From contig JBFFUJ010000001.1 of assembly GCA_041571375.1 (NCBI GenBank), forward strand, positions 1-41,145: DNA of 41,145 bases. The letters run 5' to 3'. A program made the translations under genes and the position numbers. Below, piece by piece: positions 871-41,145 of this stretch. Each line of letters starts with the position of its first letter. The stretch's first letter is position 1. The DNA is from Lysobacterales bacterium. GTDB taxonomy: Bacteria > Pseudomonadota > Gammaproteobacteria > Xanthomonadales > SZUA-36. The notes under the pieces were generated by a model. That model made no database searches, was not told where the DNA came from, and saw nothing but the letters and a program-made list of their open reading frames with translations.

Positions 871-2520
871 ATGGCACTGCACCCCCTGGCCGGCAAGCCG
901 GCGCCCCAATCGATTCTGACCAACGTCGCCCGACTGGTCGCCAATTACTACAGCCTGCGGCCGGATGCATCGCTGCCCGCGCAACGCGTGGCTTTCGGCA
1001 CCTCCGGACATCGGGGTTCGGCCGATACCTGCAGCTTCAACGAAGCCCACATTCTGGCCATCAGACAGGCGGTGTCCGAATTCCGCGGCAGCCGCGGGAT
1101 CGACGGGCCGATCTTCGTCGGCATGGACACCCATGCGCTGTCCGAACCCGCCCTGATCACCGCCGTCGAGGTGCTGGCGGCAAATGGCGCCGAGGTCATG
1201 CTCGACGAAACGCTCGGCTACACACCGACGCCGGTGGTTTCTCACGCGATCCTCACCCATAACCGCAACGGAGGTGGTGGACTTGCCGACGGCATCGTCA
1301 TCACACCCTCCCACAACCCCCCATCCGATGGCGGGTTCAAGTACAACCCGCCGAGCGGCGGTCCGGCCGACACGGAAACCACGACCTGGATCGAGCGACG
1401 CGCCAACGAACTGCTGGCCGGCGCCGAAACGGTTCGCCGCTGGCCGTGGGAGCGGGCCAGTCGGGCGGAGAACGTACGCCGGCACGACTACCTCGGGGCT
1501 TATATCGCGGAACTCGGCAGCGTAATCGACATGGATGCTGTCCGCGATTCCGGTATCCGTATCGGCGCCGATCCCATGGGCGGCGCCGGCGTGGCCTACT
1601 GGGAGCCGATTGCGGAGCGCTACGGCCTGAACCTGGAGCGGGTCCGTGAGACCGTGGACCCGTCCTTCCGCTTCATGCCCGTGGACAAGGACGGCAAGAT
1701 CCGCATGGATTGCTCGTCACCCGCGGCCATGGCGGGGCTGATCGAACTCAAGGACCGCTTCGACATCGCCTTTGGCAACGACACTGATTTCGATCGCCAC
1801 GGCATCGTCACGCCCAGCGTCGGTCTGATGAATCCGAATCACTACCTGGCCGTCGCCATTGCCTGGCTGTTCAGCAACCGCCCGGACTGGCCGTCGACGG
1901 CCGCGATCGGCAAGACCCTGGTCAGCAGCAGCATGATCGACCGGATCGCAGCCAGCCTCGGAAGGACGCTGTGCGAGGTACCGGTAGGCTTCAAGTGGTT
2001 CGTGGACGGTCTGCTGGACGGCTCCCTGGGTTTCGGTGGTGAAGAAAGCGCCGGCGCCGCCTTTCTGAGGCGCAACGGGGACACCTGGGTCACCGACAAG
2101 GACGGCATCATCCTGAACCTGTTGGCCGCTGAAATCACCGCCCGCAGCGGGCGCGACCCCGGAGAGCACTACCGGGACCTCGAACAGCGCTTCGGTGCAC
2201 CCACGTACGAGCGGATCGATGCGCCGGCGACCCGCGAGCAGAAGGCGGTACTGTCGAACCTGTCACCCGACCAGGTCACCGCCACCGAACTGGCCGGCGA
2301 ACCCATCACTGCGCGGCTGACCCGGGCGCCGGGCAACGGCGCGGCCATCGGCGGCCTCAAGGTCGTCACGGCGAGCGGCTGGTTCGCCGCGCGGCCTTCC
2401 GGCACCGAAGACATTTACAAGATCTACGCCGAGAGTTTCCTCGGTCCGGATCACCTGCAGCGGATTCAGGAGGAGGCGCGCCGCATCGTCTCAACCGCTC
2501 TCGAAGGCGTGGCGCAATAA
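871..2520 (+). CDS. pgm: Phosphoglucomutase, alpha-D-glucose-phosphate specific
   Basis: 549 aa with ATG start at 871. Phosphoserine loop [15 protein letters not shown], sugar-binding GEESAG, and C-terminal [14 protein letters not shown] are typical of Pgm. Confidence 0.95.
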
Positions 2521-17119: not shown

Positions 17120-17873
17120 CGGTCAGCGGAACGAAGCGCACGGCGGTGATTTGTCGCGTAACGATCTCTCCGGTCGTTTTTTTTGTGACCAGCAGCAGAT
17201 ACTGGACCGTGAAGCGTCCGCCGACCGGGATCACCATCCGGCCACCCGGCTTCAGCTGCTCGATCAGCGGCGGCGGCACATGGCTGGCGGCTGCCGTCAC
17301 GACGATCGCGTCGAACGGGCCCTTGTCAGCCCAACCGAAGTAGCCGTCGCCCAGCCGCGTGGCGACATTGTCGTAACCGAGCCGTTCCAGCCGCGCGGTC
17401 GCCTCGAGGTGCAGCGGTTCGATGATCTCGATGCTGTAAACCTGACCCACCAGTTTGGCCAGCACCGCCGCCTGGTAGCCCGAACCGGTTCCGATTTCCA
17501 GTACCGTGTCTTGGCGGCCGGGCTCCGCCAGTTCGGTCATCAGCGCGACGATGTAGGGCTGCGAAATGGTCTGCCCGTGGCCGATCGGCAAGGGGTGATT
17601 GTCATAGGCCTCGGACCACAGTTTCTTCGGGACGAATTCATGCCGCGGCACGGCGCCCATCACGTCGAGGATCTGATCGCTGAAGCCCCTGCGGCCGGGG
17701 GGTGGATCCATTCGGCCATAGGCCTTTATTTCGTTCACCAGCGCCATGTGTGCGGCTTCGAAGCCGGAATCCTGGCCGAGTGCGGCTCCGGCCACCCACG
17801 ACGCTCCGGCCAACCCGGCAGCCAGCAGAAGCACACAGGTTCTCAGCCGGCGTGCTGCGTGGAACCGGAACAT
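17109..17873 (-). CDS. pcm: Protein-L-isoaspartate O-methyltransferase with N-terminal signal peptide
   Basis: Motifs PRHEFVP, GHGQTISQPYIVALMTE, VLEIGTGSGYQAAVLA, DAIVVTAAA and RFVPLTG. The hydrophobic leader is RTCVLLLAAGLAGASWVAGAALG. The ATG at 17871..17873 forms a TGATG junction with the stop of the upstream gene; an alternative ATG lies at 17891. Confidence 0.9.
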   Translation of the reverse strand: MFRFHAARRLRTCVLLLAAGLAGASWVAGAALGQDSGFEAAHMALVNEIKAYGRMDPPPGRRGFSDQILDVMGAVPRHEFVPKKLWSEAYDNHPLPIGHGQTISQPYIVALMTELAEPGRQDTVLEIGTGSGYQAAVLAKLVGQVYSIEIIEPLHLEATARLERLGYDNVATRLGDGYFGWADKGPFDAIVVTAAASHVPPPLIEQLKPGGRMVIPVGGRFTVQYLLLVTKKTTGEIVTRQITAVRFVPLTGER

Positions 17874-18685
17874 CAGGCAGCGTTTTGGCATGGCAGCTCC
17901 TCCACTATGGACCAGGCGCCATAGCCGACCACCCGGTCGTGGTTGCCGGCGGTGTCGCCCGAATTGCGAAGATCCAGTGTTTCGGCCCGCAAGCCGCGTT
18001 GCCGGGCTACCCGCAGCAGGCCGCGCAGCGGTGCCGCTCCGCAGGCGTCGCCGTGACCGATCCGTGGTCCGTCAAGCTGCTCGACCGCCCGGCAGGTCAG
18101 GGCGTCCCGCGACCTCGCAGCACGATACGGCAGGTAGTGGCTCAGGTCCGAGCTGACCACGACCAGCGTATCGGCGCCGACCCAGAGCGCATCGATGACC
18201 TCGGCCACGTCGCGGTCCCGCGCTTCGCCCACAAGCAGCGGCACGATGCAAAAGGCCTCGAGCGTCACCTGCAGGAACGGCAACTGGACTTCCAGGCTGT
18301 GTTCGTCCTGGTGGGCCGCGTCGTTCACCTGCAACGCCGCGTGGCCCAGTCTGTCCAGTGGGTCGGGATCAAGCGCGACGTCACCGAGCGGTGTGCGGAA
18401 AACCAGGGCGCTGCTGCGGGCCAGGCCGCGAAAAGCGCTGAAGTGGCTGGGTCCGACCAGCACCACACGGTGGTAACGGTGGCGGTGCGCGCGAAGGCGG
18501 GCATAGGCCGTGGCCGCCACCGGTCCCGAGTACATGTAGCCTGCGTGAGGGACGATCAGCCCCGCCGGCGCGGCCTCCGGGGCGACCTGGACGGCGTCGA
18601 GCATACCCTCCAGCGCGCCTCGCAGGGCACCGGGATCGGCCGGGTAAAAGGACCCGGCAACCGCTGCTTCCCTGATCCGGGTCAT
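17873..18685 (-). CDS. AmmeMemoRadiSam system protein B (Memo-like)
   Basis: The N-terminus REAAVAGSFYPADPGALR and IVPHAGYMYSGPVAA, plus the later His/Asp/Cys-containing segments, are typical of the Memo family. ATG at 18683..18685; position 18688 is GTG. Confidence 0.9.
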   Translation of the reverse strand: MTRIREAAVAGSFYPADPGALRGALEGMLDAVQVAPEAAPAGLIVPHAGYMYSGPVAATAYARLRAHRHRYHRVVLVGPSHFSAFRGLARSSALVFRTPLGDVALDPDPLDRLGHAALQVNDAAHQDEHSLEVQLPFLQVTLEAFCIVPLLVGEARDRDVAEVIDALWVGADTLVVVSSDLSHYLPYRAARSRDALTCRAVEQLDGPRIGHGDACGAAPLRGLLRVARQRGLRAETLDLRNSGDTAGNHDRVVGYGAWSIVEELPCQNAA

Positions 18686-18709
18686 CACGTTCAGTATAGT
18701 CCGGGCGCT

Positions 18710-19864
18710 ATGATGGGATCAGGCGCTCTGGCTTCGGGTATTGATATGGCTCAATCCAAGGCAAGCAACGAACAGGGCGACCGAATAGAGGGGCTTCCGG
18801 TGCACTATTGGCACCGGATGGATGACGGCCGTCTGCAATGTGATCTCTGCCCGCGGTTCTGCCGGCTGCGCGACGGGCAGCGCGGTCTGTGCTTCGTGCG
18901 CGCCCGTGCCGGCGAGCATATGGTGCTCACGACCTATGGCCGCTCCAGCGGGTTCTGCATCGACCCCATCGAGAAGAAACCGCTGAACCACTTCCTGCCG
19001 GGAACTCCGGTGCTCTCGTTTGGCACTGCGGGCTGCAATCTGGCCTGCAAATTCTGCCAGAACTGGGACATGACCAAGTCGCGGGAGTTCGATCGCCTGC
19101 AGGCCGAGGCCACGCCGCGGGAGATCGCACGGGCTGCGGTCACCAGCGGCAGCCGCAGCGTGGCCTTCACCTACAACGACCCGGTGATCTTCATGGAGTA
19201 CGCCGCGGATACGGCGGAAGCCTGCCACGAGCTGGGAATCCGAACGGTCGCCGTCTCGGCCGGCTACATCACCGAGGAACCGCGCCGCGCTTTTTTCCGC
19301 AGCATGGACGCGGCGAATATCGACTTGAAGGCCTTCACCGAGCGCTTCTACTGGAAGCTTTGCGGTGCCCATCTGCAAGCGGTGCTGGAGACGCTGCAGT
19401 ACCTGCGTCACGAGACGCGGATCTGGCTGGAGCTGACGACCCTGCTGATCCCGGGCGAAAATGACTCCGAGGCGGAAATCGATGAGATGACGCAGTGGAT
19501 CGTGGAGCATCTGGGCCCGGATACACCGCTGCACTTAACGCGTTTTCATCCGGACTGGAAGATGGCGGACCGCTCGGTCACGCCCACGGCCACGCTGACG
19601 CGCTCCCGGCGCATCGCGCTGCGCAACGGCATGCGTTACGTTTTTACGGGCAACGTGCACGATCCCGAAGGGTCCAGCACCTATTGCCCGCAGTGCGGCC
19701 AGCGGCTGATCGGACGCGATTGGTACGAACTCTCGGACTGGCAGCTGGATGTGGACGGAACAGGGGCCGTCTGCCGCAGCTGCAGGACGCCGGTGGCCGG
19801 AGTATTCGAGGCCCGTCCGGGCACCTGGGGCTCCCGCAGGCAACCGATCCATGTTCACCACTGA
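18710..19864 (+). CDS. AmmeMemoRadiSam system radical SAM enzyme
   Basis: N-terminal CDLCPRFCRL...GLCFVR zinc/auxiliary motif. IDPIEKKPLNHF, the radical SAM cluster motif GCNLACKFCQNWD, and the C-terminal CPQCG...CRSC ribbon. The start is ATG 18710 or ATG 18746. The ORF-track N-terminus (17702..18709) is antisense to the Memo-like gene and rejected. Confidence 0.9.
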   Translation: MMGSGALASGIDMAQSKASNEQGDRIEGLPVHYWHRMDDGRLQCDLCPRFCRLRDGQRGLCFVRARAGEHMVLTTYGRSSGFCIDPIEKKPLNHFLPGTPVLSFGTAGCNLACKFCQNWDMTKSREFDRLQAEATPREIARAAVTSGSRSVAFTYNDPVIFMEYAADTAEACHELGIRTVAVSAGYITEEPRRAFFRSMDAANIDLKAFTERFYWKLCGAHLQAVLETLQYLRHETRIWLELTTLLIPGENDSEAEIDEMTQWIVEHLGPDTPLHLTRFHPDWKMADRSVTPTATLTRSRRIALRNGMRYVFTGNVHDPEGSSTYCPQCGQRLIGRDWYELSDWQLDVDGTGAVCRSCRTPVAGVFEARPGTWGSRRQPIHVHH

Positions 19865-23237: not shown

Positions 23238-25310
23238 TTATTTTTCGCCCGGGGTGCTCAAAAGCACCAGTGAACGCGCCGGCAACCTCAAGTGCCCCCC
23301 TTGCTGAACCCTGGGTGCCGGATCGGCACTGCTGAAGCGCAACCGCCAATCCGGTATGCCGGCCGCAGGCATCGTGAACAGGACTTCGGCGGGCGCGGCA
23401 TTGAACAGGATCGCGACGGCTTCGCCAATTGCACTGTCGCCTTTCTGATCGGCACGGCAGGCATACAGCAGCGCCAGGCATTGCTGGCCTTCCCAATCCG
23501 TGTCCTGCATGGCCCGGCCATCGGGGTGCAGCCAGCTGATGTCGCACCAGCCCCGGTCGCTGGGCAAGCGGCTGTGGAGATAACGGGATTGCCGCAACAG
23601 CGGCAGTTTTCTGCGCCATTCGATCAGTCGCCTCACCTGATCCGTGAACTCCCGATCCTCCAGGAACCCGGACCAGTCCAGCCAGCCGGTCTCGTTGTCC
23701 TGTGCATAGGCATTGTTGTTTCCTCCCTGCCCGTTGCCGAATTCGTCACCGGCCAGCAGCATCGGCGTGCCCTGTGCAAACAGCAGGGTGGCGAGCAGGT
23801 TCAGGCGCTGCTGCCGGCGGGCCGCCCCGATCGCGGGATCGTCGGTATCGCCCTCCACACCGTGGTTGCTGCTGAAATTGTGTGAGTGCCCGTCGCGATT
23901 CTGTTCGCCATTGGCCTGATTGTGCTTGCGACGGTAGCTGACCAGGTCCCGCAGGGTGAAGCCGTCGTGGCAGGTCACGAAATTGACGCTGGCCGTGGGG
24001 CTGCGCCGAGTCGGCTCGAACAGGTCTGCCGAACCGTGAATGCGCCGCGCGAGGTCGGCCGCCTGCTGCTCATCACCCCGCCAGAAACGCCGGACGGTGT
24101 CCCGGAATCGGTCATTCCACTCCGCCCATTCCGCCGGGAAACGGCCCAGTTGATAACCCCCAGCTCCGGGATCCCATGGTTCGGCGATCAACTTCGCGCC
24201 ATCGAGCACCGGATCGCTGCCGATGCGGGCCAGCAGGGGGTGACTCCCTGAAAAGCCCTCCGCCGAGCGCCCCAGCACGGTTGCCAGGTCGAAGCGGAAA
24301 CCATCGACACCCATGTCCCGGTGCCAGTAGCGGAGGCTGTCGAGGATCAACCTCTGCACCACCGGGCTGTCGGCGTTCAGGGTATTGCCGCAGCCCGTGT
24401 CGTTGACATAGTCGCCCGGTGACCCCGGCTCCGTGCGGTAATAGGCGAGGTTGTCGATGCCCCGGAAACTCAGACTGGGTCCGCGCGCGTCGCCCTCCGC
24501 CGTGTGGTTGTACGCCACATCCAGAAGCACCTCGATGCCCGCGTCGTGGATGGCATGCACCATCTCGCGGAATTCGGCGGTCGCATCGGGTCCGGCAAAT
24601 CGCCCGTCGGGCACGAAAAACTGGATGCTGTTGTAGCCCCAGAGGTTGCTTAGTCCGCGCCGGACCAGGAACTCCTCGTCCAACATGGCAAACACCGGCA
24701 TCAATTCCAGCGACGTGATGCCGAGCGACTTCAGATAGGCCAGTATCCTACCGTTGCTGAGTCCGGCCAGGCGACCGCGTTCGGGTTCCGACAGATCCGG
24801 GTGGCGCATCGTGTAGCCCCGCACATTGGCCTCGTAGATCACCATCTCGGACCACGCAACTCCCGGCCTCTGAAAGGCCTCGCGGCCGTCCGCCGCAACG
24901 ACGACCGACAGCGGCACGAACGCAGCGCTGTCCGAGCCGCTCTTGCGCCACCTGTCCCGCCCGGCCGTCCGGTCGTAATCGAACAGTTCGGACGACCATT
25001 TCGGCCCGCCGTCCAGGCGGCGGGCCCAAGGATCGATCAGCAGCTTGGCCGGGTTGTGCCGCAGCCCTTCCTCCGGTGACCAGCGACCGTGCACCCGGTA
25101 GCCATAGCGCTGCCCGGCGCGGCAGCCCGGCAGATAGCCAGACCACTCGGCACCTTCACATTCGGGCAGAAAATGAGATTCCGACGCGTTGCGGTTCTCG
25201 TCGAACAAGCACAGCTCGACCGCCTCAGCGCTGCCGGAGTGAAGGGCGAAGGTGACGCCTTCGTTGTCGCAGGTCGCGCCCAGCGGGCCTGAACTCTCTG
25301 GCCGTATCAT
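23238..25310 (-). CDS. glgX: Glycogen debranching enzyme GlgX
   Basis: 690 aa. GH13 motifs VLLDVAYNHTAEG, GFRFDLA, LIAEPWD and FVTCHDGFTLRD. ATG at 25308..25310 forms an ATGA overlap with the malQ stop. Confidence 0.95.
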   Translation of the reverse strand: MIRPESSGPLGATCDNEGVTFALHSGSAEAVELCLFDENRNASESHFLPECEGAEWSGYLPGCRAGQRYGYRVHGRWSPEEGLRHNPAKLLIDPWARRLDGGPKWSSELFDYDRTAGRDRWRKSGSDSAAFVPLSVVVAADGREAFQRPGVAWSEMVIYEANVRGYTMRHPDLSEPERGRLAGLSNGRILAYLKSLGITSLELMPVFAMLDEEFLVRRGLSNLWGYNSIQFFVPDGRFAGPDATAEFREMVHAIHDAGIEVLLDVAYNHTAEGDARGPSLSFRGIDNLAYYRTEPGSPGDYVNDTGCGNTLNADSPVVQRLILDSLRYWHRDMGVDGFRFDLATVLGRSAEGFSGSHPLLARIGSDPVLDGAKLIAEPWDPGAGGYQLGRFPAEWAEWNDRFRDTVRRFWRGDEQQAADLARRIHGSADLFEPTRRSPTASVNFVTCHDGFTLRDLVSYRRKHNQANGEQNRDGHSHNFSSNHGVEGDTDDPAIGAARRQQRLNLLATLLFAQGTPMLLAGDEFGNGQGGNNNAYAQDNETGWLDWSGFLEDREFTDQVRRLIEWRRKLPLLRQSRYLHSRLPSDRGWCDISWLHPDGRAMQDTDWEGQQCLALLYACRADQKGDSAIGEAVAILFNAAPAEVLFTMPAAGIPDWRLRFSSADPAPRVQQGGHLRLPARSLVLLSTPGEK

Positions 25311-26881
25311 GCAGCAGAGTCTAAGCTCTTGCCGCGAAGCCTTGAAGCGGTCTGCACCATATCGGCAACCGTTTCGGTCAGGGCCCCGGACAGCTCTCCG
25401 GACTCCATTCGCCAGCGCCAGTTGTTGACCGTAGTGCCCGGTGTATTGAAACGCGCCGCCGACCCAAGCCCCAGGAAGTCCTGCATGGGCGCCACCGCAA
25501 GGGCCGATTTCGCCGAGAAAGCCAGGCGGATCAGATCGTGGTGAATGGTCGCCGCCGTGCCCCCGGTCAGTTTCAGTGCCCGTTCGCGCGTTTCCTCGAT
25601 CTGCTCCGCCGTCCGGGTGTCGTCCCCGTTGCCGCGGAACCAGCCCCGGGTGGTGTCATTGTCGTGCGTTCCGGTGTAGCACACGCTGTTTTCTTCGATC
25701 GAGTCCATGTCGAAATCCGGCTCGCCGACCTCGAACTGGAGCACCACCATGCCCGGAATCCCGTGTTCCTTGCGCAGGGATTCCACTGCGGGGGTGATCA
25801 CGCCGAGGTTCTCCGCCACGATCGGAAGCTGACCCAGCGACCCCTCCAGCGCCCCGAACAGGCTATCCCCCGGGCCCCGTACCCAGCTGCCCTGCTTTGC
25901 CGTTGTTGCACCGTAAGGCACCGACCAGAACGACTCGAAACCCCTGAAGTGATCGATACGCACCAGGTGTGCCTGCTCGATGGCGAAACGCATGCGCTCA
26001 ACCCACCAGCCGAAATCGGTCGCCTCGTGGTGGCCCCAGTCATAGAGCGGATTACCCCAGAGCTGACCGTCCTCGCTGAAGTAATCCGGCGGCACGCCGG
26101 CCACGTGGGAGGGGCGCCCGTCGCTGTCGATGAGCAGCATTTCGCGATTGGCCCAGGCGTCGGCGCTGTCGAGCGCAATGTAAATCGGCATATCGCCGAA
26201 CAGGCAGATACCACGCTGCGTGGCATAGTCCTTCAGCTGGCGCCACTGTCGTTCGAACAGGAACTGTTTGACCCGCGTCTGCTCGATCTCGATCGAATGT
26301 CGTTCCCGGGTCTGCCGCAGGGCAGCCGGCTCACGGCGCACATGTTGCTTATCCCACTGCGGCCAGGCGCGTTCGCTATGAGCTGTTTTCAGCACCCTGA
26401 ACAGCGCGTAGTCGTCCAGCCATCGGTCCGCGTTGCGATGCAGAAAATCTTCGTACTCGGCCAGCAGCCCGTTACCTCGCCGCTCACTGAAGCGCTGGGC
26501 CGCCTGCGCCAGAACCTGCCGCTTGAGCGGGATGAGTCGGCCGTAGTCCGTATGATCCCTCGGCAGCGCCCGGAGTGAGTCGATCTCACCCTGCTGCAGC
26601 AGTCCGAGCCGGACCAGCGGCTCCAGCCCGATCAGGTTGGCATTGCCGGCAAAGGCGGACAGGGGCTGGTAGGGCGAGTCTCCGTAAGCTGTCGGGCCCA
26701 GGGGCAGAAACTGCCAGACCCCCAGTTTCATTTCGACCAACCGGTCGATGAAAGCCATCGCACTGTCCGCAATGTCGCCGATGCCGTAAGGGCCCGGCAG
26801 GGACGTGAAATGCAGCCCGACGCCGGCCTGGCGGCCCATGCCGAGAATGCAGGAATCAGATTTGCTGTTGCTCTGAATCAT
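25307..26881 (-). CDS. malQ: 4-alpha-glucanotransferase (amylomaltase)
   Basis: GH77 motifs GIGDI, PLGPTAYGDSPYQ, DMPIYIALDSADAW, VRIDHFRGF, VAENLG and YTGTHDNDT. ATG at 26879..26881 (or 26839). The TTG-initiated extension to 27046 is unlikely. Confidence 0.93.
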   Translation of the reverse strand: MIQSNSKSDSCILGMGRQAGVGLHFTSLPGPYGIGDIADSAMAFIDRLVEMKLGVWQFLPLGPTAYGDSPYQPLSAFAGNANLIGLEPLVRLGLLQQGEIDSLRALPRDHTDYGRLIPLKRQVLAQAAQRFSERRGNGLLAEYEDFLHRNADRWLDDYALFRVLKTAHSERAWPQWDKQHVRREPAALRQTRERHSIEIEQTRVKQFLFERQWRQLKDYATQRGICLFGDMPIYIALDSADAWANREMLLIDSDGRPSHVAGVPPDYFSEDGQLWGNPLYDWGHHEATDFGWWVERMRFAIEQAHLVRIDHFRGFESFWSVPYGATTAKQGSWVRGPGDSLFGALEGSLGQLPIVAENLGVITPAVESLRKEHGIPGMVVLQFEVGEPDFDMDSIEENSVCYTGTHDNDTTRGWFRGNGDDTRTAEQIEETRERALKLTGGTAATIHHDLIRLAFSAKSALAVAPMQDFLGLGSAARFNTPGTTVNNWRWRMESGELSGALTETVADMVQTASRLRGKSLDSAA

Positions 26882-27078
26882 GGATCCATTACTGGCTCGA
26901 TGGCGACCGGAGGAGTGTTCGCAGCCAGGGGTATTATCGGCGGCAAATCGCTTCTCGGCCACGTTTTCCGACCCGGAGTTGCCTGCTCGCGACCCGCGAG
27001 GGAGTCGCACCGTGGTTTCTTTGGCGTGAGTGCCTTCGTGGACCAATGCCCCATCTGGATCATGCTAATCTCTGCAGG

Positions 27079-33655: not shown

Positions 33656-36600
33656 TCAGTGGCTCGACTCGGCGGCACCGGCAACCTCCGGGTCGATGGC
33701 GAAAACCGGGCGGAATCCGAAATAGACCTCGCCGGTCTGGCCGTGAATCGACAGGATGTCGCCGCGTTGGAGGCAGTGCATCGGTTTTCCGGCCTCGTCA
33801 ACCAGCACGGCTTCGTCCCGATAGACTCTTAATTCTGCCACGCCCAGCACGGCGGCATAAGGGCGATCGTCGATCCCGTGCACGGCCACCGCGGCATGCG
33901 AGGTCGAACCACCGCGGGCGGCCAGCAGGCCGTCGACCGACAGGATGAGCGGTATTTCGTCGGGAATCGGGTTCTCCAGCACCAGCAGAATGCCATCGAC
34001 CTCGTCCGGCAAGGTTGCATATTCCTGCTTCAGGAGCTGGACATCTTCATCGTCGAACGCCACCAGTCCGCGAAAAGCGCCGCCCGCAATGCCGATGCCG
34101 CGCCCCGCGGGTGCGCCCGGTTCACGGAAGGTCTGCGCCTCGTGCTGCAATTCCAGTTGTGCGCTGCGGGTCTGCAGCACGCTGAGCACACCGCGCTCCA
34201 CGGTGAACTCGATCTCGGCGTCGGATCCCAGGAAGCGCCGCAGGCGGGCACTGATGTGGTTCAGCTTGCGCTCTAGCATCGGCGCCTGCGCGTGCAATTC
34301 CGCCACCGGTTCGAACGATTTGGCCGCGGTCAGACCGCCAACCAGGTCGTCACCGCAGGCACTGAACTTGACGTCCCCGGTGAACACGCGGAAGCCGGCT
34401 CCGGTCATCCGGGTGTGCGGTATGACGCCGGTCAGGGAGATCCGTGTCTCGTCCATGCCGGGTTTCAACGGTTCCTCGTTGGAGCGGTTGCCGGCCGCCA
34501 TTTGCTGCACGATCACCGCCGTGTGCCAGCCGTCGCTCAGATGTTTGATCGAGCGGTAACGCTCGGCACGCGGACCGTTCCAGGAATCGAACACCGCCCG
34601 CATCGACCTGACCAGCTGCAATTCCACGTCCTGCAGCACCGCGTCGAGCTCCTCGCCATGACCGGCTTCGTGGATCGCTGCCTTGGACGCTTCCACAATC
34701 TCGCGCATGGCGTGGCCCGGCAAGTCGATCTTCAGCGCCACACCGTGCCGCCGCTTGGCCTCCTCGACCAGGTTGAGCTCTTCCAGGTCAAGGTGCCATA
34801 CGGCGGCGGAATAGGAAGCGAGGAATCTGCGGTAGGCATCCCAGGCGAACCACTCGTCCTCCCGCGCCAGTTCCTCGGCGACCGCGTCGGTGATGCCCGC
34901 GAACACCACGGTCGACAGCTGGCCGGGCATCGAGAAGACCGAACCGCCCCTGATGGCCAGCAGCAGTGGTGCCGAGGGATCCCCCAGGCGCACAGGCGAC
35001 CCGCTCTCGCGGGCGATGTCCTGCTCCAGGATCTCCACATGGCGCAGCAGCTCGCGCTCCAGCTTTTCGGGCTCACGGCGATGCAGGTTCATGCGCGGCA
35101 GCACGGTCGGGATGATGAACGCATCCCGTGTCGGCACGCCCAGATACGCAATGTATATGAGTCCGCTGCCCTTGCCGCCGTACCGCGCCTGCAGGCTCAC
35201 GCTCTCGCTGTCCTCGACCCGCCGCACGACATCGTCCCGGTGCGAGAGATGGATGAAGTCCCAGGGATTTTCGCCCATGGACCCGCTGCCGAGCTGCGGC
35301 AGATTGGCCCGGCGCTCGGCGATGTGGGCGCGGGCCAGATCCGAGAAGTGCACCAGGCTGTTGAGATCGTGCATGGTGCGCTGGAAGTTGCCCAGTACCG
35401 CGCGCATTTCGATCTCGCTGTAGCCGAGGTGGCCGGCCATGACGTCGTACGCCTCGCTGACGCGATGCACCAGACGGTGGTAGTTCCGCTGCACCTGCTC
35501 GAGCACGTCGAGCAACTCCGAGGGCGAACGGGCGGGATGCACCAGCATGGCCGACAGATCCCAAAGTTCCCGTGAGAACAGTCCGTCGAGCTCGAGGTTG
35601 CCGGCACACAGGAATACGACGCGTAAGCACTGCGCAAGATCCAGCCCGTGTTCCTGGTAGTCCGACGCCAGGTGCCGCAGGGCGAAGTAGCCCAGTTCCT
35701 CCAGCACGCAGTCGAGCTGATGCAGCAGGTACCTCTGACTGGCGAAGACACCTCGCCCGCAAAGATTTTCGGTATGGCGGCGCAGCGCACAGCATTGCTC
35801 GAAGGCCCGGAACTGGTTGCCGTTCTGATAGCAGGCGACCAGCGCCTCCAGTTCGGCAAACAGGGCGTCCTGGTGGTCCGCGCGCAGGCGCCGGACGAAA
35901 TCCGCCACGGTTTTTCGCGCCAGGTCCTCAGCCCGCACCGCGTCGAAACCGTCTTCGCCGGGCTCCATTTCCCGCAGCAACGCCAGGCCCGCCTCGAATG
36001 CCTGCCGTGCTTCGTCGGCCCAATCCCCGCCCCGGGCCTTGTTGGCCAGGCTCCGCAGACGGTGCTGGTAGACCCAGCGATTGTCGGCGCGAATACCGTT
36101 CACGACCAGAGACTCGAGTTCCTCCGAAAGCGTGTTGGTCGACTCGCAGCGGGTCAGTTCGGCCGCATAACCTTCCTGCCACTCCGCGATGCGCGTAGCC
36201 ACCTGTGAAGTGCCGAGCAGCTGTTCGAGGTTACCGACGATGCGTCCCACCAGGTTTACAGCACGGGGGTCTGCCCGGGCCGCCTCGTCCGCAGCGGTCG
36301 GGATTTCTCGCTCGGGATCGGGGAAAGCCGCCTGTCCCGTGTCGAGCCAGCGCTGATACGCCCTGGCGAGCGCCAGGGTCTGCTTGCCCATGGCGTGATG
36401 GGTGCTGCGCCGGATCTCGTTGGCAATGGCGCTGCCGCGGACCTGCACCTCGGCCAGATCGATGGTGTCCTGCCAGACTTCGTCGATCAGCTTGGGCCGC
36501 GAGACCATTCCGGAGATGCTGCGCACCAGGATACGGGTGGGCAGGCGCAGCCGGGAGGCGAACGGACCGTTCATGAATTCCACCAGTTCCGCGCGAACCC

Positions 36601-39600
36601 TGGTGACCTCAGGCATCAGGTTTTTCGCCCCGGCAATGCCTCGGTAGCTCGTGCTGCAGAAGCGCGCCACCAGAAAGCGCAGCAGATACACTGCCTCGTG
36701 TCGGCTGCCGCAGGCATTCAGACGCCTCAGCACCACGGCCAGGTCGCGCAGCCGCGAGACCTGGATGGCGGGCATCTCGCCCACGTCGAGGTGGTAGATT
36801 TCCTGCTCGAGGTCGATGGCCTCGCCGAGTTTCCCGACCAACCCCGCAATCATCGGGTCGGTAATGATCGTGCCCTGCGGCAGGCGCTGCTCCGCGAGCA
36901 AACGGTCCTCCTCGGCCGCGAGGGAATGGACCGCCAGCCGCCCCTGAGCATCGAAGGGGACCAGCAGGGCATCGTCCTGGCGGAAGATCCGGTGATTGGC
37001 GATTTCGAACAACGGATACCGCTGCCCGATGCGGGCCATGGTCTCGAGGTAGCAGCGCAGCGCCGCACTGTGGGCCTGTTCCGGCGAGTCGGGGGTTGAA
37101 TAAGCAGCAATCAGGGCGCGGTTCAGGGCGGCGAGTTGGTCGCGTTCGCCCGCATCGAAAGCAGCAGGTTCGCCGGCCGCCGCGCGTTTCACCGGCGTCG
37201 GCGGCAGCGCCCCCGCCAGGTCCTTTTCCGGCCATTCATACAGGGCCGTGACTTCACGCAATGCCTCGTGCAGGGGGCGGTTCCGCGCCTCCAGCCTGGC
37301 GTTCACCTCGCGCAAGGCCTGCAGATAGTCGTCGAAGCGGCTGCCGTGGATGACCACACCGTGAAAAGCGGCCAGGCGCTCGATAATGACCAGCATCTCC
37401 TCCCGCAGAAACTCATACAGCTCCTGCCCACGGACACTGGCGACGCCCCGCGCCAGGGCCAGCGAGGTGGACAGGATCGCGTTCATGCCGACGTTCTGCT
37501 TGCGTTGCATTACCTGGACCTGCGCGTCCCGCGGCGCTTCAACGTCCAGCTTCCCCCGGCGCTCGGCCGTGGACAGCTCCAGCCCCAGCAACGCCCGGTC
37601 GATGTCCAGCAGGCTCCAGTCCGCGATATTCCGGGCCTCGAACAGGGGCGCGATGAACTCGTGCACGTGATCGACCGCGAACAGGCAACCCTTGCCGTTG
37701 TACCGTCCCGCTCGCCGCGCCAGCTCGAGCAGCACCTCGTCTGCACAATCCGCGGGAACGGCTTCCGTCCGAATGGCATAGACACCGGGTTCGACTTCTT
37801 TCAGCAGTTGGCCGTGGCGCTCGACGATTTCCGTGTACTCGGCCCCTTCGAATACCGCATCCACAACGTGGACCGCCTCGCCGGTGCCGGCAGAAGTGCC
37901 CAGCGGGGTCGCCCCATGGAAACTCATCCGGACCCCGCCATCGGCGCCGGTTCCCGGCAGCGCCAGGTCGACGTCCACGCCGACAGTTGGAATGCCGGCG
38001 TTGGTGGGCTCTTCCTGGGCCCGCACGCGGGCTACGGTCGCCCGCTCCGGCGGCACCGGCTCCCGCACGTCCCCCTCCGCAATGCGGTCCATCTGCTTGG
38101 CAATGGCCTGATACTTGATCAGCCGCTCGGTATTGGCCCCGCCTCCGGCTTTCAGGCCCAAGGCATTACCCGCCAGCGCGATGTGGGCCTCCATGTCGTC
38201 GTTCGGACTCTTCGACCGGTGCGACACGACGATTTCCAGTCCCTTGCCCAAAGCCACCAGCATGGCCAGCAGGGTCTCATAAAGCGTCCCGATCTGGTTG
38301 GCCTTGACCAGCACGGTGTTGATCAGCCCATGCTCGGCAGCCATTTCGATCGTTCGGTCATTGGTGGTCACCAGATCATCGCCGATCACCAGGATGCGGT
38401 CGCCCAGACGCTCGAGCAGCAGCCGCCAGCCTGCGTGGTCGTTTTCGGAGAATCCGTCTTCGATGGACAGGATCGGGATATCGAGGTCACGGACCGCCCG
38501 CTCGTAGACGGCCAGAACGCCGTCACGGTCCAGCACCTTCTTGGCATGATCGCGCCAGAACAGGTACATGCCGACAGCGTCCGGAACATCGAATTCCTCG
38601 CGGTAGGCGATTTCCAGTTCCGACAGGGCCGGATCGAGGGCCAGCGCTACATCGATACCGGGACGGTAACCGCATTCCTCGATAGCCCTTTTCATCAGGT
38701 CCCACAGGCGCAGTTCCGGCAGCTCGTATTCGGCCCGGTCGACGTAGGGGGCCAGGCCGCCCTCCAGGCCGATGCCCATCACACGGCAGCCCTCCGCCGA
38801 CTCGAGTATTTCCTTGAGCCGATTCTGCAGCCGCACGGTCATTTCCTGGGCCTCCTGGGAATCCTCCGCACCGAGGATCAGGAACATGGCTTCCTGCATG
38901 CTGACGTTCGACTCGGGATATTCCTTTTCTGTATGGCGGCCGCCCATGCCGCAGTTGCGGAATTGCCAGGGTGCGCGTACCACGCCAAGCCGCGGGTGGG
39001 TGGCGTCCTGCATGCTGCGCTGGCTGAGGCGGCGGCGCGCATCCGGGGCCAGCCCCAGCCAGCCCGACGACTTGGGCAGGGCCGCGGCCGTCTCGCTGGC
39101 GAGGCGTTCGCGGCGCTGGAACTCGCGGTATTTGCCGGGATCCGCAAGCAGAAAGTCGAGTCCCGTCACCAGGCCCAGGCCCAGCAGCAGTCGCCCGCCA
39201 TAGAGTGCGCCGTCGAACTCCCCGAGCAGACCGATCGCCAGCAGCACCGCGGCCAAGGGCAGCGCCACCCGCGCGACCGCCAGGCTGGCCCGTGGACCCG
39301 CGGCAGCGACCGCCAGATTGTAGGGGGCGTCAGGATAGTAATTGAGGCCCTCGCGCTTCACCCCTACGGCACGTCCAAAGGGGATGCGCAGGAACATGCC
39401 GGCCAGATACCGCGCCCGGGCGAGCCACGGCTGGGCCAACCGACGGGCGACCTCATCCTGGATGGACTCGTTGAGCGCCCGCAGGCGGGCGGCTTCGAGA
39501 ACGTGCCCCAGTTCATGCAGCGACACGGCCGAGTGGAACACCAGGTAGGTGAAGGCGGCGGAGATCAGGGTCTCCGGGCTTACAAAAATGAATCGGAGAA

Positions 39601-39763
39601 CCTCCGCCCGCGATGCTGCGTCAGCCGGGATCGCGAGCACAGAGGAGATGAAGGCGGCGTGAAAGGAAACCAGAATATGGTTGGCGATCACCCAGCCTTC
39701 CTGCAGCATAGACCGCTCAGAAGACAGCGAAGTCGCACGCTTGTCCGGGACGATTGAACCCAT
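33656..39763 (-). CDS. Giant multidomain protein: M50-like membrane domain + permuted enolase + unknown ~730-aa region + PPDK/PEPS-type ATP-grasp and phosphohistidine swivel domains
   Basis: The frame is uninterrupted from 39910 (GTG) to the TGA at 33656..33658. The ATG at 39761..39763 (GGAG 11 nt upstream) is preferred, giving 2035 aa; the ATG at 39709 is also possible. Domain motifs are listed in the sub-features below. Residue numbers used in this answer follow the ORF-track protein (residue 1 at 39910). Confidence 0.85.
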   Translation of the reverse strand: MGSIVPDKRATSLSSERSMLQEGWVIANHILVSFHAAFISSVLAIPADAASRAEVLRFIFVSPETLISAAFTYLVFHSAVSLHELGHVLEAARLRALNESIQDEVARRLAQPWLARARYLAGMFLRIPFGRAVGVKREGLNYYPDAPYNLAVAAAGPRASLAVARVALPLAAVLLAIGLLGEFDGALYGGRLLLGLGLVTGLDFLLADPGKYREFQRRERLASETAAALPKSSGWLGLAPDARRRLSQRSMQDATHPRLGVVRAPWQFRNCGMGGRHTEKEYPESNVSMQEAMFLILGAEDSQEAQEMTVRLQNRLKEILESAEGCRVMGIGLEGGLAPYVDRAEYELPELRLWDLMKRAIEECGYRPGIDVALALDPALSELEIAYREEFDVPDAVGMYLFWRDHAKKVLDRDGVLAVYERAVRDLDIPILSIEDGFSENDHAGWRLLLERLGDRILVIGDDLVTTNDRTIEMAAEHGLINTVLVKANQIGTLYETLLAMLVALGKGLEIVVSHRSKSPNDDMEAHIALAGNALGLKAGGGANTERLIKYQAIAKQMDRIAEGDVREPVPPERATVARVRAQEEPTNAGIPTVGVDVDLALPGTGADGGVRMSFHGATPLGTSAGTGEAVHVVDAVFEGAEYTEIVERHGQLLKEVEPGVYAIRTEAVPADCADEVLLELARRAGRYNGKGCLFAVDHVHEFIAPLFEARNIADWSLLDIDRALLGLELSTAERRGKLDVEAPRDAQVQVMQRKQNVGMNAILSTSLALARGVASVRGQELYEFLREEMLVIIERLAAFHGVVIHGSRFDDYLQALREVNARLEARNRPLHEALREVTALYEWPEKDLAGALPPTPVKRAAAGEPAAFDAGERDQLAALNRALIAAYSTPDSPEQAHSAALRCYLETMARIGQRYPLFEIANHRIFRQDDALLVPFDAQGRLAVHSLAAEEDRLLAEQRLPQGTIITDPMIAGLVGKLGEAIDLEQEIYHLDVGEMPAIQVSRLRDLAVVLRRLNACGSRHEAVYLLRFLVARFCSTSYRGIAGAKNLMPEVTRVRAELVEFMNGPFASRLRLPTRILVRSISGMVSRPKLIDEVWQDTIDLAEVQVRGSAIANEIRRSTHHAMGKQTLALARAYQRWLDTGQAAFPDPEREIPTAADEAARADPRAVNLVGRIVGNLEQLLGTSQVATRIAEWQEGYAAELTRCESTNTLSEELESLVVNGIRADNRWVYQHRLRSLANKARGGDWADEARQAFEAGLALLREMEPGEDGFDAVRAEDLARKTVADFVRRLRADHQDALFAELEALVACYQNGNQFRAFEQCCALRRHTENLCGRGVFASQRYLLHQLDCVLEELGYFALRHLASDYQEHGLDLAQCLRVVFLCAGNLELDGLFSRELWDLSAMLVHPARSPSELLDVLEQVQRNYHRLVHRVSEAYDVMAGHLGYSEIEMRAVLGNFQRTMHDLNSLVHFSDLARAHIAERRANLPQLGSGSMGENPWDFIHLSHRDDVVRRVEDSESVSLQARYGGKGSGLIYIAYLGVPTRDAFIIPTVLPRMNLHRREPEKLERELLRHVEILEQDIARESGSPVRLGDPSAPLLLAIRGGSVFSMPGQLSTVVFAGITDAVAEELAREDEWFAWDAYRRFLASYSAAVWHLDLEELNLVEEAKRRHGVALKIDLPGHAMREIVEASKAAIHEAGHGEELDAVLQDVELQLVRSMRAVFDSWNGPRAERYRSIKHLSDGWHTAVIVQQMAAGNRSNEEPLKPGMDETRISLTGVIPHTRMTGAGFRVFTGDVKFSACGDDLVGGLTAAKSFEPVAELHAQAPMLERKLNHISARLRRFLGSDAEIEFTVERGVLSVLQTRSAQLELQHEAQTFREPGAPAGRGIGIAGGAFRGLVAFDDEDVQLLKQEYATLPDEVDGILLVLENPIPDEIPLILSVDGLLAARGGSTSHAAVAVHGIDDRPYAAVLGVAELRVYRDEAVLVDEAGKPMHCLQRGDILSIHGQTGEVYFGFRPVFAIDPEVAGAAESSH
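33716..34108 (-). other. Domain: PEP-utilising-enzyme mobile (phosphohistidine swivel) domain
   Basis: GIGIAGGAFRGLVAF...ILLVLENPIPDEIPLILSVDGLLAARGGSTSHAAVAVHG...LSIHGQTGEVYFG. The TSH histidine codon is at 33896..33898. Confidence 0.8.
34136..35200 (-). other. Domain: PPDK/PEP-synthase N-terminal nucleotide-binding (ATP-grasp) domain
   Basis: YGGKGSGLIYIAYLGVP, PLLLAIRGGSVFSMPGQLSTVVFAGI, WDAYRRFLASY, AVFDSWNGPRAERYRSI, TAVIVQQMAAGN and AEIEFTVERGVLSVLQTRSA. These are collinear with the PPDK motifs GGKGANL, LLVSVRSGAxxSMPGMMDTxLNLG, YDSYRRF, AVFxSWxxxRAxxYR, TAVNVQxMVFGN and DIEFTIExGxLxxLQTR. Confidence 0.8.
37397..38038 (-). other. Domain: enolase N-terminal domain, located after the barrel
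   Basis: GIPTVGVDVDL, GATPLGTSAGTGEAVHVVD, YNGKGCLFAVDHVHEFIAPLF, LLDIDRALL, and NVGMNAILSTSLALARGVA...ELYEFL. These are collinear with the canonical GNPTVEVEV, PSGASTGxxEAxElrD, GKGVxxAVxNVN, iDxxm and LGANAILxVSLAxAkAaA...PLYxYl. Confidence 0.75.
38075..38977 (-). other. Domain: enolase C-terminal TIM-barrel
   Basis: SMQEAMFLI, GLEGGLAP, ALALDPALSE, LSIEDGF (38453..38467 encodes SIEDG), VIGDDLVTTN, VLVKANQIGTLYE, VVSHRSKSPND and LKAGGGANTERLIKYQ. These are collinear with the canonical enolase motifs QEFMI, DEGGFAP, ALDxAASE, SIEDG, VGDDLxVTN, KxNQIGTLTE, SHRSGETED and IKTG...R..KYNQ. Confidence 0.8.
39143..39703 (-). other. Domain: M50/site-2-protease-like polytopic membrane region
   Basis: HELGH (39503..39517) sits in a hydrophobic segment. 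It is followed by VAAAGP and a hydrophobic LLGEFDGALYGG segment, the order seen in SpoIVFB/RseP-type peptidases (HExxH ... AGP ... xDG). Confidence 0.55.
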
Positions 39764-40011
39764 CTCACCCGCGCTCCGTGAGGTTGCAGGCAGGTTACAT
39801 GCTACGCCCGGCCGGACACCATGATTTGCATCACTGCGAGGCCATCCTCCGGCTGCGGCCAGCCTGAGCGCTGCTGGTAAAAATGACCCATCCGGAGTGG
39901 TTTCCGCCACCCCGGCAGGCCTTCAGGGCACTGGCCCCCGGTTTTTTGGGTCCGTCCCATGGCATGGAATGTGCATGACTTCCTTGTCGGAATCTGCAGA
40001 GGAGGTCGAGG

Positions 40012-40242
40012 ATGGGGCACGGTTCATGCGGTAACGTGATCGCGGCGTTGGCGAGTTTTTTCATTCCCGGCCTGGGACAGCTGCTGCAGGGCCGCTGGCT
40101 GCTGGCAGGGATCATGTTCGTTCTGACGGCGCTGCTCTGGCTGATCCTGCTCGGTTGGATCATTCACCTGTGGTCGATCATCGACGCCGCTCTGTTCGAG
40201 CCCCCCGACCCGTGGCAACGCTATGAATACCGGCGCGGCTGA
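40012..40242 (+). CDS. Small two-TM membrane protein (PGLGQ motif)
   Basis: ATG at 40012 after GGAGG. 76 aa with FFIPGLGQLLQGRW followed by a second hydrophobic helix. It is divergent from the giant gene. Confidence 0.55.
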   Translation: MGHGSCGNVIAALASFFIPGLGQLLQGRWLLAGIMFVLTALLWLILLGWIIHLWSIIDAALFEPPDPWQRYEYRRG

Positions 40243-40264: not shown

Positions 40265-40705
40265 TCAGGCCGCCAGCTGCTGGTCGATCCAGGCCTCGAT
40301 GTCGCCCGCCGACATGACACCGGAGTGCCTCGCGATCTCTTCGCCAGCGCGAAACAGTATCATCGTGGGAATGCTGCGGATGTTGTGCTGCTGGGCGATC
40401 AGCTGCTCCTCGTCAGTGTTCAGCTTGGTAAATTTGACGCGTGATTCAAGGGCGCGGGCTGCCTGCTCGAAGGCCGGCGCCATCGCCTTGCAGGGACCGC
40501 ACCACGCAGCCCAGAAATCCACCAATATCGGGATTTCACTGTCCGCAAGGGTTTCGCTGAAGGTTGCCGACGTCAGGTCGGCGGGTTTCGCAGCAAACAT
40601 GTGACGGCCGCAGGAACCGCACAGCAGCTGGTCATTGAACTGCTCGGCAGGGATGCGTTCGACGGCAGCGCAATACGGGCAGGTCACTTTCCTGGAAAAA
40701 GTCAT
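40265..40705 (-). CDS. trxC: Thioredoxin 2 (zinc-finger N-terminal extension)
   Basis: ATG at 40703..40705 after GGAGGAA. 146 aa with an N-terminal CPYC...CGSC zinc ribbon and the WCGPC active site. The ORF-track extension to 40978 is rejected. Confidence 0.9.
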   Translation of the reverse strand: MTFSRKVTCPYCAAVERIPAEQFNDQLLCGSCGRHMFAAKPADLTSATFSETLADSEIPILVDFWAAWCGPCKAMAPAFEQAARALESRVKFTKLNTDEEQLIAQQHNIRSIPTMILFRAGEEIARHSGVMSAGDIEAWIDQQLAA

Positions 40706-40826
40706 CGAGCATTCCTCCGCCAGCCCTGGTGCCGACATTTTATGAACTATGTCTAAGCCAAGTGCGGGCCGTCGAATCCGGTTACAAGGGCCCTGCGCTG
40801 CCGATTGAGGCCCGCCCGGCGGAGGC

Positions 40827-41145
40827 TCAGAACGACAACTCGCGCCATCCGCCAGGCACCAGGGGATAGTACAGCGCTGCACGTACTGGCCGCTCTTCCA
40901 GCGCCCGGTAAGCGGCGACGTATCGCGACAGCTGCGCCCGGTAGCGCTGCGCCTCCTCATCCAGAAAGGCCGACGCATCCGCCCCCTCGTGGATGCCGGT
41001 CTTGTAGTCGATGACCCAGCGGGCGCCCTCCCGGTCGATGAAACTGCGGTCTACGACGACATGATGCAGTCGACCCTCGATCAGTGCGCTGAGGGGCACT
41101 TCGCACCGTGCATCCCGATGCGCGGAGGAAAGAATCCACTGACCG
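40827..41145 (-). CDS. C-terminal part of a PD-(D/E)XK (RecB/AddB-type) nuclease-domain protein; 5' end lies outside the window
   Basis: Motif GRLHHVVVDR...WVIDYKTG, typical of RecB-family nuclease domains. The frame stays open from 41099 (GTG) to the window end, so the gene continues beyond 41145. Confidence 0.6.
   Translation of the reverse strand, partial: GQWILSSAHRDARCEVPLSALIEGRLHHVVVDRSFIDREGARWVIDYKTGIHEGADASAFLDEEAQRYRAQLSRYVAAYRALEERPVRAALYYPLVPGGWRELSF

Follow-up and report, generated by a model that had tools for sequence, protein, structure and literature searches.

A giant protein of a Lysobacterales bacterium joins a membrane domain and a circularly permuted enolase to a barrel-less PPDK-type dikinase half

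Enolase and pyruvate phosphate dikinase (PPDK) are textbook enzymes with very stable architectures. In the stretch of DNA analysed here (the window: 41,145 nucleotides of a Lysobacterales bacterium, contig JBFFUJ010000001.1 of GenBank assembly GCA_041571375.1, positions 1 to 41,145), recognisable parts of both enzymes are encoded by one giant minus-strand open reading frame (ORF). This frame, 33656..39910, was borne out as predicted, being given in the ORF list as 6.25 kb and 2084 codons without an internal stop. It also encodes a membrane domain, and it lacks the phosphoenolpyruvate (PEP)/pyruvate barrel of PPDK. The question raised by this locus is which domain serves the phosphohistidine engine in place of that barrel. 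The original prediction pointed to the enolase, the sole PEP-binding barrel of the protein. The analysis suggests instead that the protein is built of two modules, A (residues ~68-905, membrane domain and enolase) and B (residues ~915-2084, central domain and dikinase half), and that the partner of the phosphohistidine engine is to be sought within module B.

Residue numbers are positions in the 2084-codon ORF, counted from the GTG at 39910. The parts of the gene are listed below, with the evidence for each in brackets; AF2 stands for AlphaFold2 models, and invariance was computed over 108 aligned full-length sequences.

33656..39763, minus strand: most likely coding sequence, 2035 amino acids (aa) plus stop (GGAG ~10 nt before the ATG at 39763; N-termini of homologues)
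39125..39709, minus strand: polytopic membrane domain, residues 68-262, ~4 hydrophobic helices (hydropathy, invariance, PF02163 below threshold)
39503..39517, minus strand: HELGH (H132, E133, H136), candidate zinc site (invariant, 108/108)
38075..38953, minus strand: enolase TIM barrel, residues 320-612, corresponding to canonical ~150-416 (Pfam, PDB phmmer, HMMER)
37397..38038, minus strand: enolase N-terminal capping domain, residues 625-838, placed after the barrel and with insertions (HMMER, Pfam Enolase_N, AF2)
37196..37396, minus strand: conserved helical linker closing module A, residues 839-905 (alignment, split/insertion boundary)
35231..37168, minus strand: family-specific central domain, residues ~915-1560 (AF2, invariance, no database match)
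34157..35203, minus strand: PPDK-type ATP-grasp domain, residues 1570-1918 (Pfam, NCBIfam, PDB phmmer, Foldseek)
33713..34135, minus strand: swivel phosphohistidine domain, residues 1926-2066, followed only by an 18-residue tail (Pfam, phmmer, Foldseek)
33896..33898, minus strand: codon of His2005 (GGSTSHAAV), predicted phospho-carrier (aligned to PPDK GGMTSH455AAV; 108/108)

The presence of PPDK-type ATP-grasp and swivel histidine domains is supported by profile, PDB-sequence, and Foldseek matches. Pfam detects PPDK_N (4.4e-10) and PEP-utilizers (1e-4, residues 1974-2028), and phmmer against PDB sequences aligns residues 1570-1918 with positions 12-340 of PPDK and residues 1926-2066 with positions 379-509 of its 874. 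Among NCBIfam families, the C-terminal part is closest to true PPDK (TIGR01828, 4.9e-64, best stretch 13-337 of 865), at 217 bits against an equivalog cut-off of 843 that is not reached. The invariant residues K1580, R1654, E1899, E1901, and R1915 correspond to K22, R92, D321, E323, and R337 of PPDK. When the model of residues 885-2084 was searched with Foldseek, PPDK was retrieved at 6e-20, then rifampin phosphotransferase at 1e-4, with noise beyond. Only 18 residues follow the point at which the PPDK alignment stops (position 509), so that a C-terminal PEP/pyruvate barrel is absent, and no match of Pfam to PF02896 was obtained at E <= 1 in the whole protein. A diverged barrel hidden in the central region was considered and rejected, since the predicted secondary structure of this region is all-alpha after a small beta unit and no profile matches it. 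The claim that the protein is barrel-less therefore holds.

What lies between the enolase and the ATP-grasp domain had been described as ~730 aa without recognisable motifs. It is true that no profile matches this region, but it is occupied by a conserved domain that is new, family-specific, ~650 residues long, and not a TIM barrel. The AF2 model of residues 885-2084 has a predicted local distance difference test score (pLDDT) of 79, mostly 80-95 in the central region, and a predicted template modelling score (pTM) of 0.77. It begins with two helices, followed by a beta-hairpin subdomain of four strands (~974-1033) and by ~20 helices (~1054-1532), with no beta/alpha alternation in the central region. 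No match to the central domain was found in Pfam, NCBIfam, or PDB sequences, and the Foldseek search of residues 885-2084 gave no PDB structure related to the central region itself. When 1.84 billion representative proteins were searched with HMMER, filters being off, just 84 matches were returned, all of them members of the family or fragments thereof. Within the domain, K1096, N1097, E1101, R1167, R1168, H1171, H1172, and D1515 are invariant and H1514 is nearly so (106/108). Such a set of invariant polar residues resembles that of a binding or catalytic site more than that of a spacer.

The architecture is not confined to the window. A homologue search of 5.8 billion proteins gave 318 matches; among the best 120 of the 318, nearly all are full-length (~2020-2100 aa), 54-79% identical, and carry the same Pfam set, and their source annotations read only 'enolase', 'PEP/pyruvate-binding domain-containing protein', or hypothetical. 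The nearest relatives with a name point to a Lysobacterales/Xanthomonadales-type gammaproteobacterium as the probable source of the window. The full-length architecture recurs in more than 100 independent assemblies, so that the fusion proposed originally is genuine and conserved, and the motifs on which it was based (HELGH, the enolase motifs, GGSTSHAAV) are all present, invariant or nearly so across the alignment. With a profile of the central domain, one genome per GTDB species being scanned, 44 loci were found, all in metagenome-assembled genomes (MAGs). They come from Lysobacterales, Acidobacteriota (Thermoanaerobaculia, Aminicenantes, Sulfomarinibacteraceae), Planctomycetota, Gemmatimonadota, Myxococcota, Fermentibacterales, Krumholzibacteriia, Desulfobacterota, and others, and in ~30 of the genome loci all four constituent modules lie in one reading frame. 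The family thus spans at least eight bacterial phyla, each represented by MAGs only. Between phyla, identity is ~60-70% for the membrane and enolase modules, with ~60% for the membrane domain itself, ~50-58% for the dikinase, and ~36-47% for the central domain. The high value for module A is unusual for an enolase and suggests that this module is under extra constraints.

The forms in which the family occurs bear directly on the choice of partner. Module B exists by itself in proteins of 1160-1198 aa that have the central domain, PPDK_N, and PEP-utilizers and nothing more. Such orphan genes are found in L005, L013, L025, L037, and L053, with no M50-like/enolase module in the 2-8 kb of upstream sequence covered; they are without the membrane domain and keep the central-domain invariants. 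One MAG holds both an orphan copy (L037) and a fused copy (L035). In locus L052, the two modules are separate genes: the first (869 aa) encodes the M50-like domain, the permuted enolase, and the linker and ends in a stop codon, the second (1184 aa) encodes the central domain and the dikinase, and the 98-nt spacer between them has stops in every frame and a GAGGAAG box as ribosome-binding site. A third form is seen in L015, L021, L026, L033, L045, and L051, where an HD phosphohydrolase domain of ~240-340 aa is inserted in-frame at the boundary of modules A and B. The split in L052 and the HD insertions fall at the same boundary, just after linker 839-905. In all these forms the dikinase has the central domain ahead of it; from the orphan genes, the two-gene split, and the insertions, the constant partner of the phosphohistidine engine is the central domain and not the enolase. 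Modules A and B are functionally linked in the Rosetta-stone sense.

Some apparent further arrangements did not stand. A protein with M50-like, enolase, and HD domains and no dikinase (P0198) was rejected because its gene is cut off where a 4.6-kb contig ends. An HD, central, and dikinase protein in L026 was rejected because it is directly preceded by an assembly gap of 100 N, past which the sequence resumes within the linker of the enolase module. Seemingly stand-alone M50-like proteins of 256-261 aa (P0218, P0234) proved to be full genes broken by frameshifts.

Module A contains an enolase whose full set of motifs had been recognised in the original prediction; all catalytic residues are indeed kept, but the circular permutation had been missed. 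Pfam detects Enolase_C in residues 322-612 (4.8e-47) and Enolase_N at 7e-10, with its best stretch at 802-835. In HMMER comparison with the enolase of B. subtilis, residues 330-612 align with 154-415, residues 733-792 with 55-110, and residues 802-835 with 101-134. These three stretches, in permuted order, show that the enolase is circularly permuted, with the barrel first and the capping domain after it. The AF2 model of residues 68-900 (pLDDT 78.8) has the barrel, then three strands and a helical bundle, and Foldseek with this model retrieved enolases only, the ~300 aligned columns being the barrel. The residues H326, E340, E383, D426, E484, D511, K536, H564, R565, S566, and K587 are invariant in all 108 sequences, as is Ser673 of the serine loop GTS673AGTGE678A in the capping domain; we take them to be equivalent to H159, E168, E211, D246, E295, D320, K345, H373, R374, S375, K396, and S39 of yeast enolase. 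The barrel thus carries the Mg ligands, the Lys base, the Glu acid, and the substrate residues of an enolase, while the canonical order of capping domain before barrel is absent and the score against the enolase equivalog TIGR01060 (203.4 bits) stays under the cut-off of 300. From this conservation, the module is predicted to be catalytically competent. The literature searched yielded no account of a natural permuted enolase.

The N-terminal domain had been described as M50-like. Of this description, the invariant HExxH in a hydrophobic helix stands, while the M50 label is weak, all scores being under the Pfam threshold. HELGH lies near the cytoplasmic end of the second hydrophobic helix, as judged from hydropathy and the model, and an invariant LD252F..AD257.GKY motif follows, of which LD252F..AD257 is near the end of the fourth and last hydrophobic helix; the canonical NxxPxxxLDG context, which in site-2 proteases supplies the Asp that is the third zinc ligand, is absent around it. 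Pfam Peptidase_M50 matches residues 122-261 of the full protein at E = 0.043 and 13.6 bits, and the isolated membrane domain gives 16.8 bits against PF02163, short of the gathering score of 27.2 bits. Weak PF02163 matches (E <= 1, profile positions 3-105) were obtained in 14 of 15 family members, the best at 4.9e-5, all below the gathering score. In an hhalign comparison with E. coli RseP, only the HExxH helix aligned (17 columns, probability 16%), HELGH being paired with HEFGH. A profile search of PDB with the membrane domain gave no match, and a profile search of a large protein database retrieved only fragments of the same family and no bona fide M50 protein. Placement of the domain in M50 was rejected on the grounds of these sub-threshold scores, the searches without a bona fide M50 protein, and the confinement of the RseP alignment to the HExxH helix. 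The data reach no further than a tentative site-2 protease (S2P)-like metal motif in a membrane anchor. The positive residues at the cytoplasmic flanks of the helices point to an N-in/C-in topology.

How might these parts work together? PPDK-type dikinases without the barrel are known, namely rifampin phosphotransferase (PMC4844700), glucan-water dikinase (PMC13553574), VadK (PMC13400623), and HpeHI (PMC12167813), and they use other acceptor domains or protein partners. The reading that we tentatively favour, with a likelihood put somewhat short of even, is that the dikinase half follows the mode of action of rifampin phosphotransferase or glucan-water dikinase, next to an active, membrane-tethered enolase with which it would share linked three-carbon (C3) chemistry. 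The giant protein would be an inner-membrane protein of ~2035 aa with two evolutionary and functional modules. In module A, a four-helix membrane domain with an S2P-like HExxH/Asp signature would be followed by the permuted enolase, which would still bind 2-phosphoglycerate (2-PG) and PEP, or a compound closely similar to them, and interconvert them on the cytoplasmic side of the membrane. In module B, which would be a self-sufficient dikinase, the ATP-grasp domain would load His2005 of the singly tethered C-terminal swivel from ATP, and the swivel would hand the phosphoryl group to an acceptor held in the helical central domain, for which R1167, R1168, H1171, H1172, H1514, and D1515 form a candidate site. 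Delivery would be neither to a PEP/pyruvate barrel, which is absent, nor necessarily to the enolase. The fusion would then reflect modules that act consecutively on one pool of three-carbon phospho-acids, and the most economical guess at the substrates would be pyruvate/PEP or glycerate/2-PG for the dikinase and 2-PG/PEP for the enolase.

Several points weigh against this proposal. The central domain could be a scaffold or a regulatory element instead of a catalytic one; the weak tails of the Foldseek search of residues 885-2084 are helical-repeat proteins (probability <0.3). The extremely conserved HExxH membrane domain is left without a role beyond anchoring, and the optional HD domain is given no role at all. 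The fact that module A is more conserved than the central domain hints at a task beyond housekeeping enolase chemistry. A bolder version, which we consider doubtful, is that the protein is a new membrane-bound phosphotransfer enzyme, in which a PPDK-derived engine, a helical acceptor domain, and a permuted enolase make up a new route around PEP. If true, this could be a route such as pyruvate or glycerate to PEP or 2-PG without the canonical barrel, or one to a new phosphorylated C3-derived compound, and such chemistry could be coupled to a putative zinc site in the membrane domain.

The alternative that survives best, unlikely as it is, makes the protein a regulatory device, either an S2P-type protease gated by the glycolytic or energy state, for which the enolase and dikinase domains would be the sensors, or a VadK-like regulatory histidine (di)kinase with a protein as target of its phosphohistidine and the optional HD domain as counter-phosphatase. 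For the gated protease, a parallel exists in SpoIVFB, an ATP-sensing protease with a CBS domain. The membrane domain, in which the HExxH of one transmembrane helix and the Asp of another are invariant, is among the best-conserved parts of the protein, and the recurrence of PF02163 matches in nearly all members tested (14/15) would fit; against this, M50 membership is not established, given the sub-threshold scores, the missing LDG motif, and the searches that retrieved no bona fide M50 protein, and orphan module B has no membrane domain. For the kinase version, VadK offers a precedent of a barrel-less PPDK acting as a regulatory kinase (PMC13400623), the HD phosphohydrolase is present in six loci, and one orphan copy overlaps at its end with a GGDEF gene. 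The invariance of the enolase and ATP-grasp catalytic residues, which mere ligand sensing would not need, speaks against both versions, and the comparison of flanking genes revealed no conserved gene for an anti-sigma factor, a sigma factor, or another candidate substrate.

The model of the original prediction, in which the swivel phosphohistidine docks on the permuted enolase barrel to make a new pyruvate/PEP/2-PG dikinase with the helical domain as spacer or scaffold, is rated as improbable. The enolase is the only recognisable PEP-binding site and is catalytically complete in its residues, its fusion or adjacency to the dikinase is the majority state, and the permutation shifts the points at which the chain enters and leaves the enolase, which could serve docking. 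However, proteins with central domain and dikinase and no enolase module nearby keep all central invariants, an HD domain of ~240-340 aa is tolerated between the enolase and the remainder, and a 650-aa domain with many invariant Arg, His, and Asp residues is too large and too constrained for a spacer. Moreover, loops must close over the active site for an enolase to work, so that a protein phosphodonor would find little space there. The argument that the enolase must be the partner because it is the sole PEP-binding barrel is not supported, given that dikinases without the barrel are known and that module B occurs as an orphan and, in L052, as a separate gene. The proposal of the enolase as phospho-acceptor is probably wrong, and direct docking of swivel and enolase in the fused form is not the parsimonious reading.

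The least of the alternatives, an artefact (assembly chimera, read-through of separate genes, or decaying pseudogene), is negligible: frameshifts do break some related loci (L049, L050) and the L052 lineage has a genuine two-gene form, but chimera and read-through are excluded by more than 100 independent full-length homologues in which domain order and length are the same and by the single frame seen in ~30 genome loci, and the catalytic residues are invariant in a frame of 2084 codons without an internal stop. Explanations other than these take the remaining probability.

In two related Acidobacteriota loci from independent assemblies (L049:9001-15179 and L050:9001-10474), the gene is broken at the same place, with an M50-like ORF of 260/261 aa followed by the enolase part in another frame, the change of frame lying near residues 243-253 of the module. 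In L049, the ATP-grasp domain is interrupted as well; in the close relative L002, the gene is intact (2058 aa). The breaks may represent sequencing indels, pseudogenes, or a recurrent slippery site. In the window itself, G+C is uniform along the giant gene (~65%). The ATG at 39763 is the probable start, giving 2035 aa, as judged from the GGAG ~10 nt upstream and from the fit with the N-termini of homologues, which begin ~20 residues ahead of LQEGW. A metagenome gene caller began at the ATG at 39709 (P0001, 2017 aa, 100% identical). The other strand also has long ORFs, 37136-39757 among them, which are shadows of the kind usual in high-GC DNA.

An all-against-all comparison of flanking ORFs in 49 loci revealed no neighbour family that is common beyond close relatives, and contexts vary by phylum. 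With no neighbour conserved across phyla, the giant protein appears to be self-contained. In the window, the gene is flanked by a Trx2-type thioredoxin gene with a zinc-ribbon N-terminus (40265-40978, minus strand) and by a gene for a two-domain glyoxalase/VOC-family protein (32740-33801, minus strand), an arrangement otherwise seen only in the close relative L003. As listed, the ORF of the glyoxalase-family gene shares 146 nt with the end of the giant gene, so that a later start is probable for it. A divergent 76-aa ORF (40012-40242, plus strand) with a GGAGG box lies between the thioredoxin gene and the giant gene; its product is small and strongly hydrophobic (MGHGSCGNVIAALASFFIPGLGQLLQGRW...). 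No match to anti-phage defence systems was obtained with PADLOC, and promoter and terminator scans around the giant gene were uninformative.

In other loci, alpha-2-macroglobulin genes (MG2/A2M/bMG10) adjoin the giant gene in Sulfomarinibacteraceae/Thermoanaerobaculia (L002:14496-20592, L040, L049:15434-18786, L019, L020), which may be lineage synteny; in a Planctomycetota locus (L004:1-7895) such a gene lies on the other side. Orphan module B genes of two Lysobacterales MAGs have a HAD-family hydrolase gene upstream (L005:1163-1795 and L013:4805-5443), with a ROK-family gene also in L013, and a TPR-GGDEF diguanylate cyclase gene in L025 (11467-13080) overlaps the orphan module B by 11 nt. The HAD, ROK, and GGDEF neighbours are too sporadic for interpretation. 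Farther away in the window are genes for an HMG-CoA reductase with an N-terminal extension domain (11143-12705, plus strand; PF00368 2.6e-120, PF25653) and a radical-SAM protein of 720 aa (17702-19864), as well as an 832-aa ORF with no Pfam match (14621-17119). Genes for a GlgX-type debranching enzyme, the 4-alpha-glucanotransferase MalQ, and phosphoglucomutase are found at 23238-27046 (minus strand) and 871-2520 (plus strand). These genes, for glycogen and maltodextrin metabolism in the case of the first two, are housekeeping context and are not kept beside the giant gene in other loci.

A full-text literature search for enolase-dikinase fusions or permuted enolases returned nothing relevant. 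As far as the literature searched shows, this is the first natural circularly permuted enolase on record. To this is added a new 650-residue domain that would replace the PEP/pyruvate barrel as partner of a PPDK-type phosphohistidine engine, and both are combined with a membrane domain bearing a protease-like metal motif. The conservation of the protein, at 55-80% identity, across at least eight phyla represented by MAGs only makes it likely that it has a selectable function unrevealed by cultured model organisms. Once known, the acceptor would either extend the PEP node of central metabolism by a new reaction or bring to light a new coupling of metabolic state to the membrane, and the clean module boundary, marked by fusion, two-gene split, and HD insertion, makes the system easy to dissect experimentally.

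Comparison with known systems places the protein among them as follows. With PPDK (TIGR01828; PDB 1KBL, 5LU4) it shares homologous ATP-grasp and swivel domains (phmmer 3.7e-45, Foldseek 6e-20, ~24-28% identity), including the equivalents of K22, R92, E323, and R337 and the TSH motif. It differs in lacking the C-terminal PEP/pyruvate TIM barrel and its linker, in having its swivel at the C-terminus on a single tether, and in carrying an unrelated 650-aa domain ahead of the ATP-grasp domain. Rifampin phosphotransferase (PMC4844700; PDB 5HV1) likewise has a C-terminal His domain, and its ATP-grasp and swivel serve an acceptor domain that is not a barrel, a logic shared by extension with glucan-water dikinase (PMC13553574), HpeHI (PMC12167813), and HapC/PigC (PMC13534948). 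The order of domains, however, is ATP-grasp, acceptor, His in rifampin phosphotransferase and acceptor, ATP-grasp, His in the giant protein, and the acceptor domain of the former is unrelated, the central region being unmatched. Foldseek similarity to rifampin phosphotransferase is weak (query-normalised TM-score 0.13-0.16). In its ATP-grasp domain, the giant protein stands far nearer to true PPDK, and it is additionally fused to an enolase and a membrane domain. VadK/Rv1127c-type truncated PPDK (PMC13400623; NF004531) has the ATP-grasp and His module without the barrel and matches at 3.3e-44, with 151 bits against a cut-off of 456 that is not reached. VadK, however, is a soluble regulatory autophosphorylating kinase of ~490 aa with no extra domains, whereas the giant protein has ~1500 residues more.

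For module A, the comparison is with canonical enolase (TIGR01060; PDB 4A3R, 1E9I), of which both domains and the metal, acid/base, phosphate-binding, and carboxylate-binding residues are kept, the barrel being ~30-33% identical to bacterial enolases. The version in the giant protein differs in being permuted, with insertions in the capping domain and a sub-equivalog score, and in being embedded in a 2035-aa membrane protein. The likeness to site-2 protease/M50 (PF02163, RseP) lies in HE(L)GH..AAR, placed within a hydrophobic helix, and in an invariant Asp that belongs to a hydrophobic helix further on; the difference is that here they are part of a giant protein without the NxxPxxxLDG motif and with all PF02163 scores under the gathering threshold. 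With the barrel absent, the acceptor domain unrelated, the order and score of the enolase non-canonical, and M50 membership unproven, the giant protein is outside every compared family, be it PPDK, the rifampin phosphotransferase kind, VadK, or the enolase equivalog, which agrees with the original prediction of an architecture outside any characterised family; it has no curated-family assignment, and no publication on it was found in the literature searched. Of the known designs, the barrel-less one with a separate acceptor domain appears to fit it, the acceptor being presumably bound by the central domain. The protein would thus be a PPDK-derived dikinase with a novel acceptor domain, joined to an unprecedented combination of permuted enolase and S2P-like anchor.

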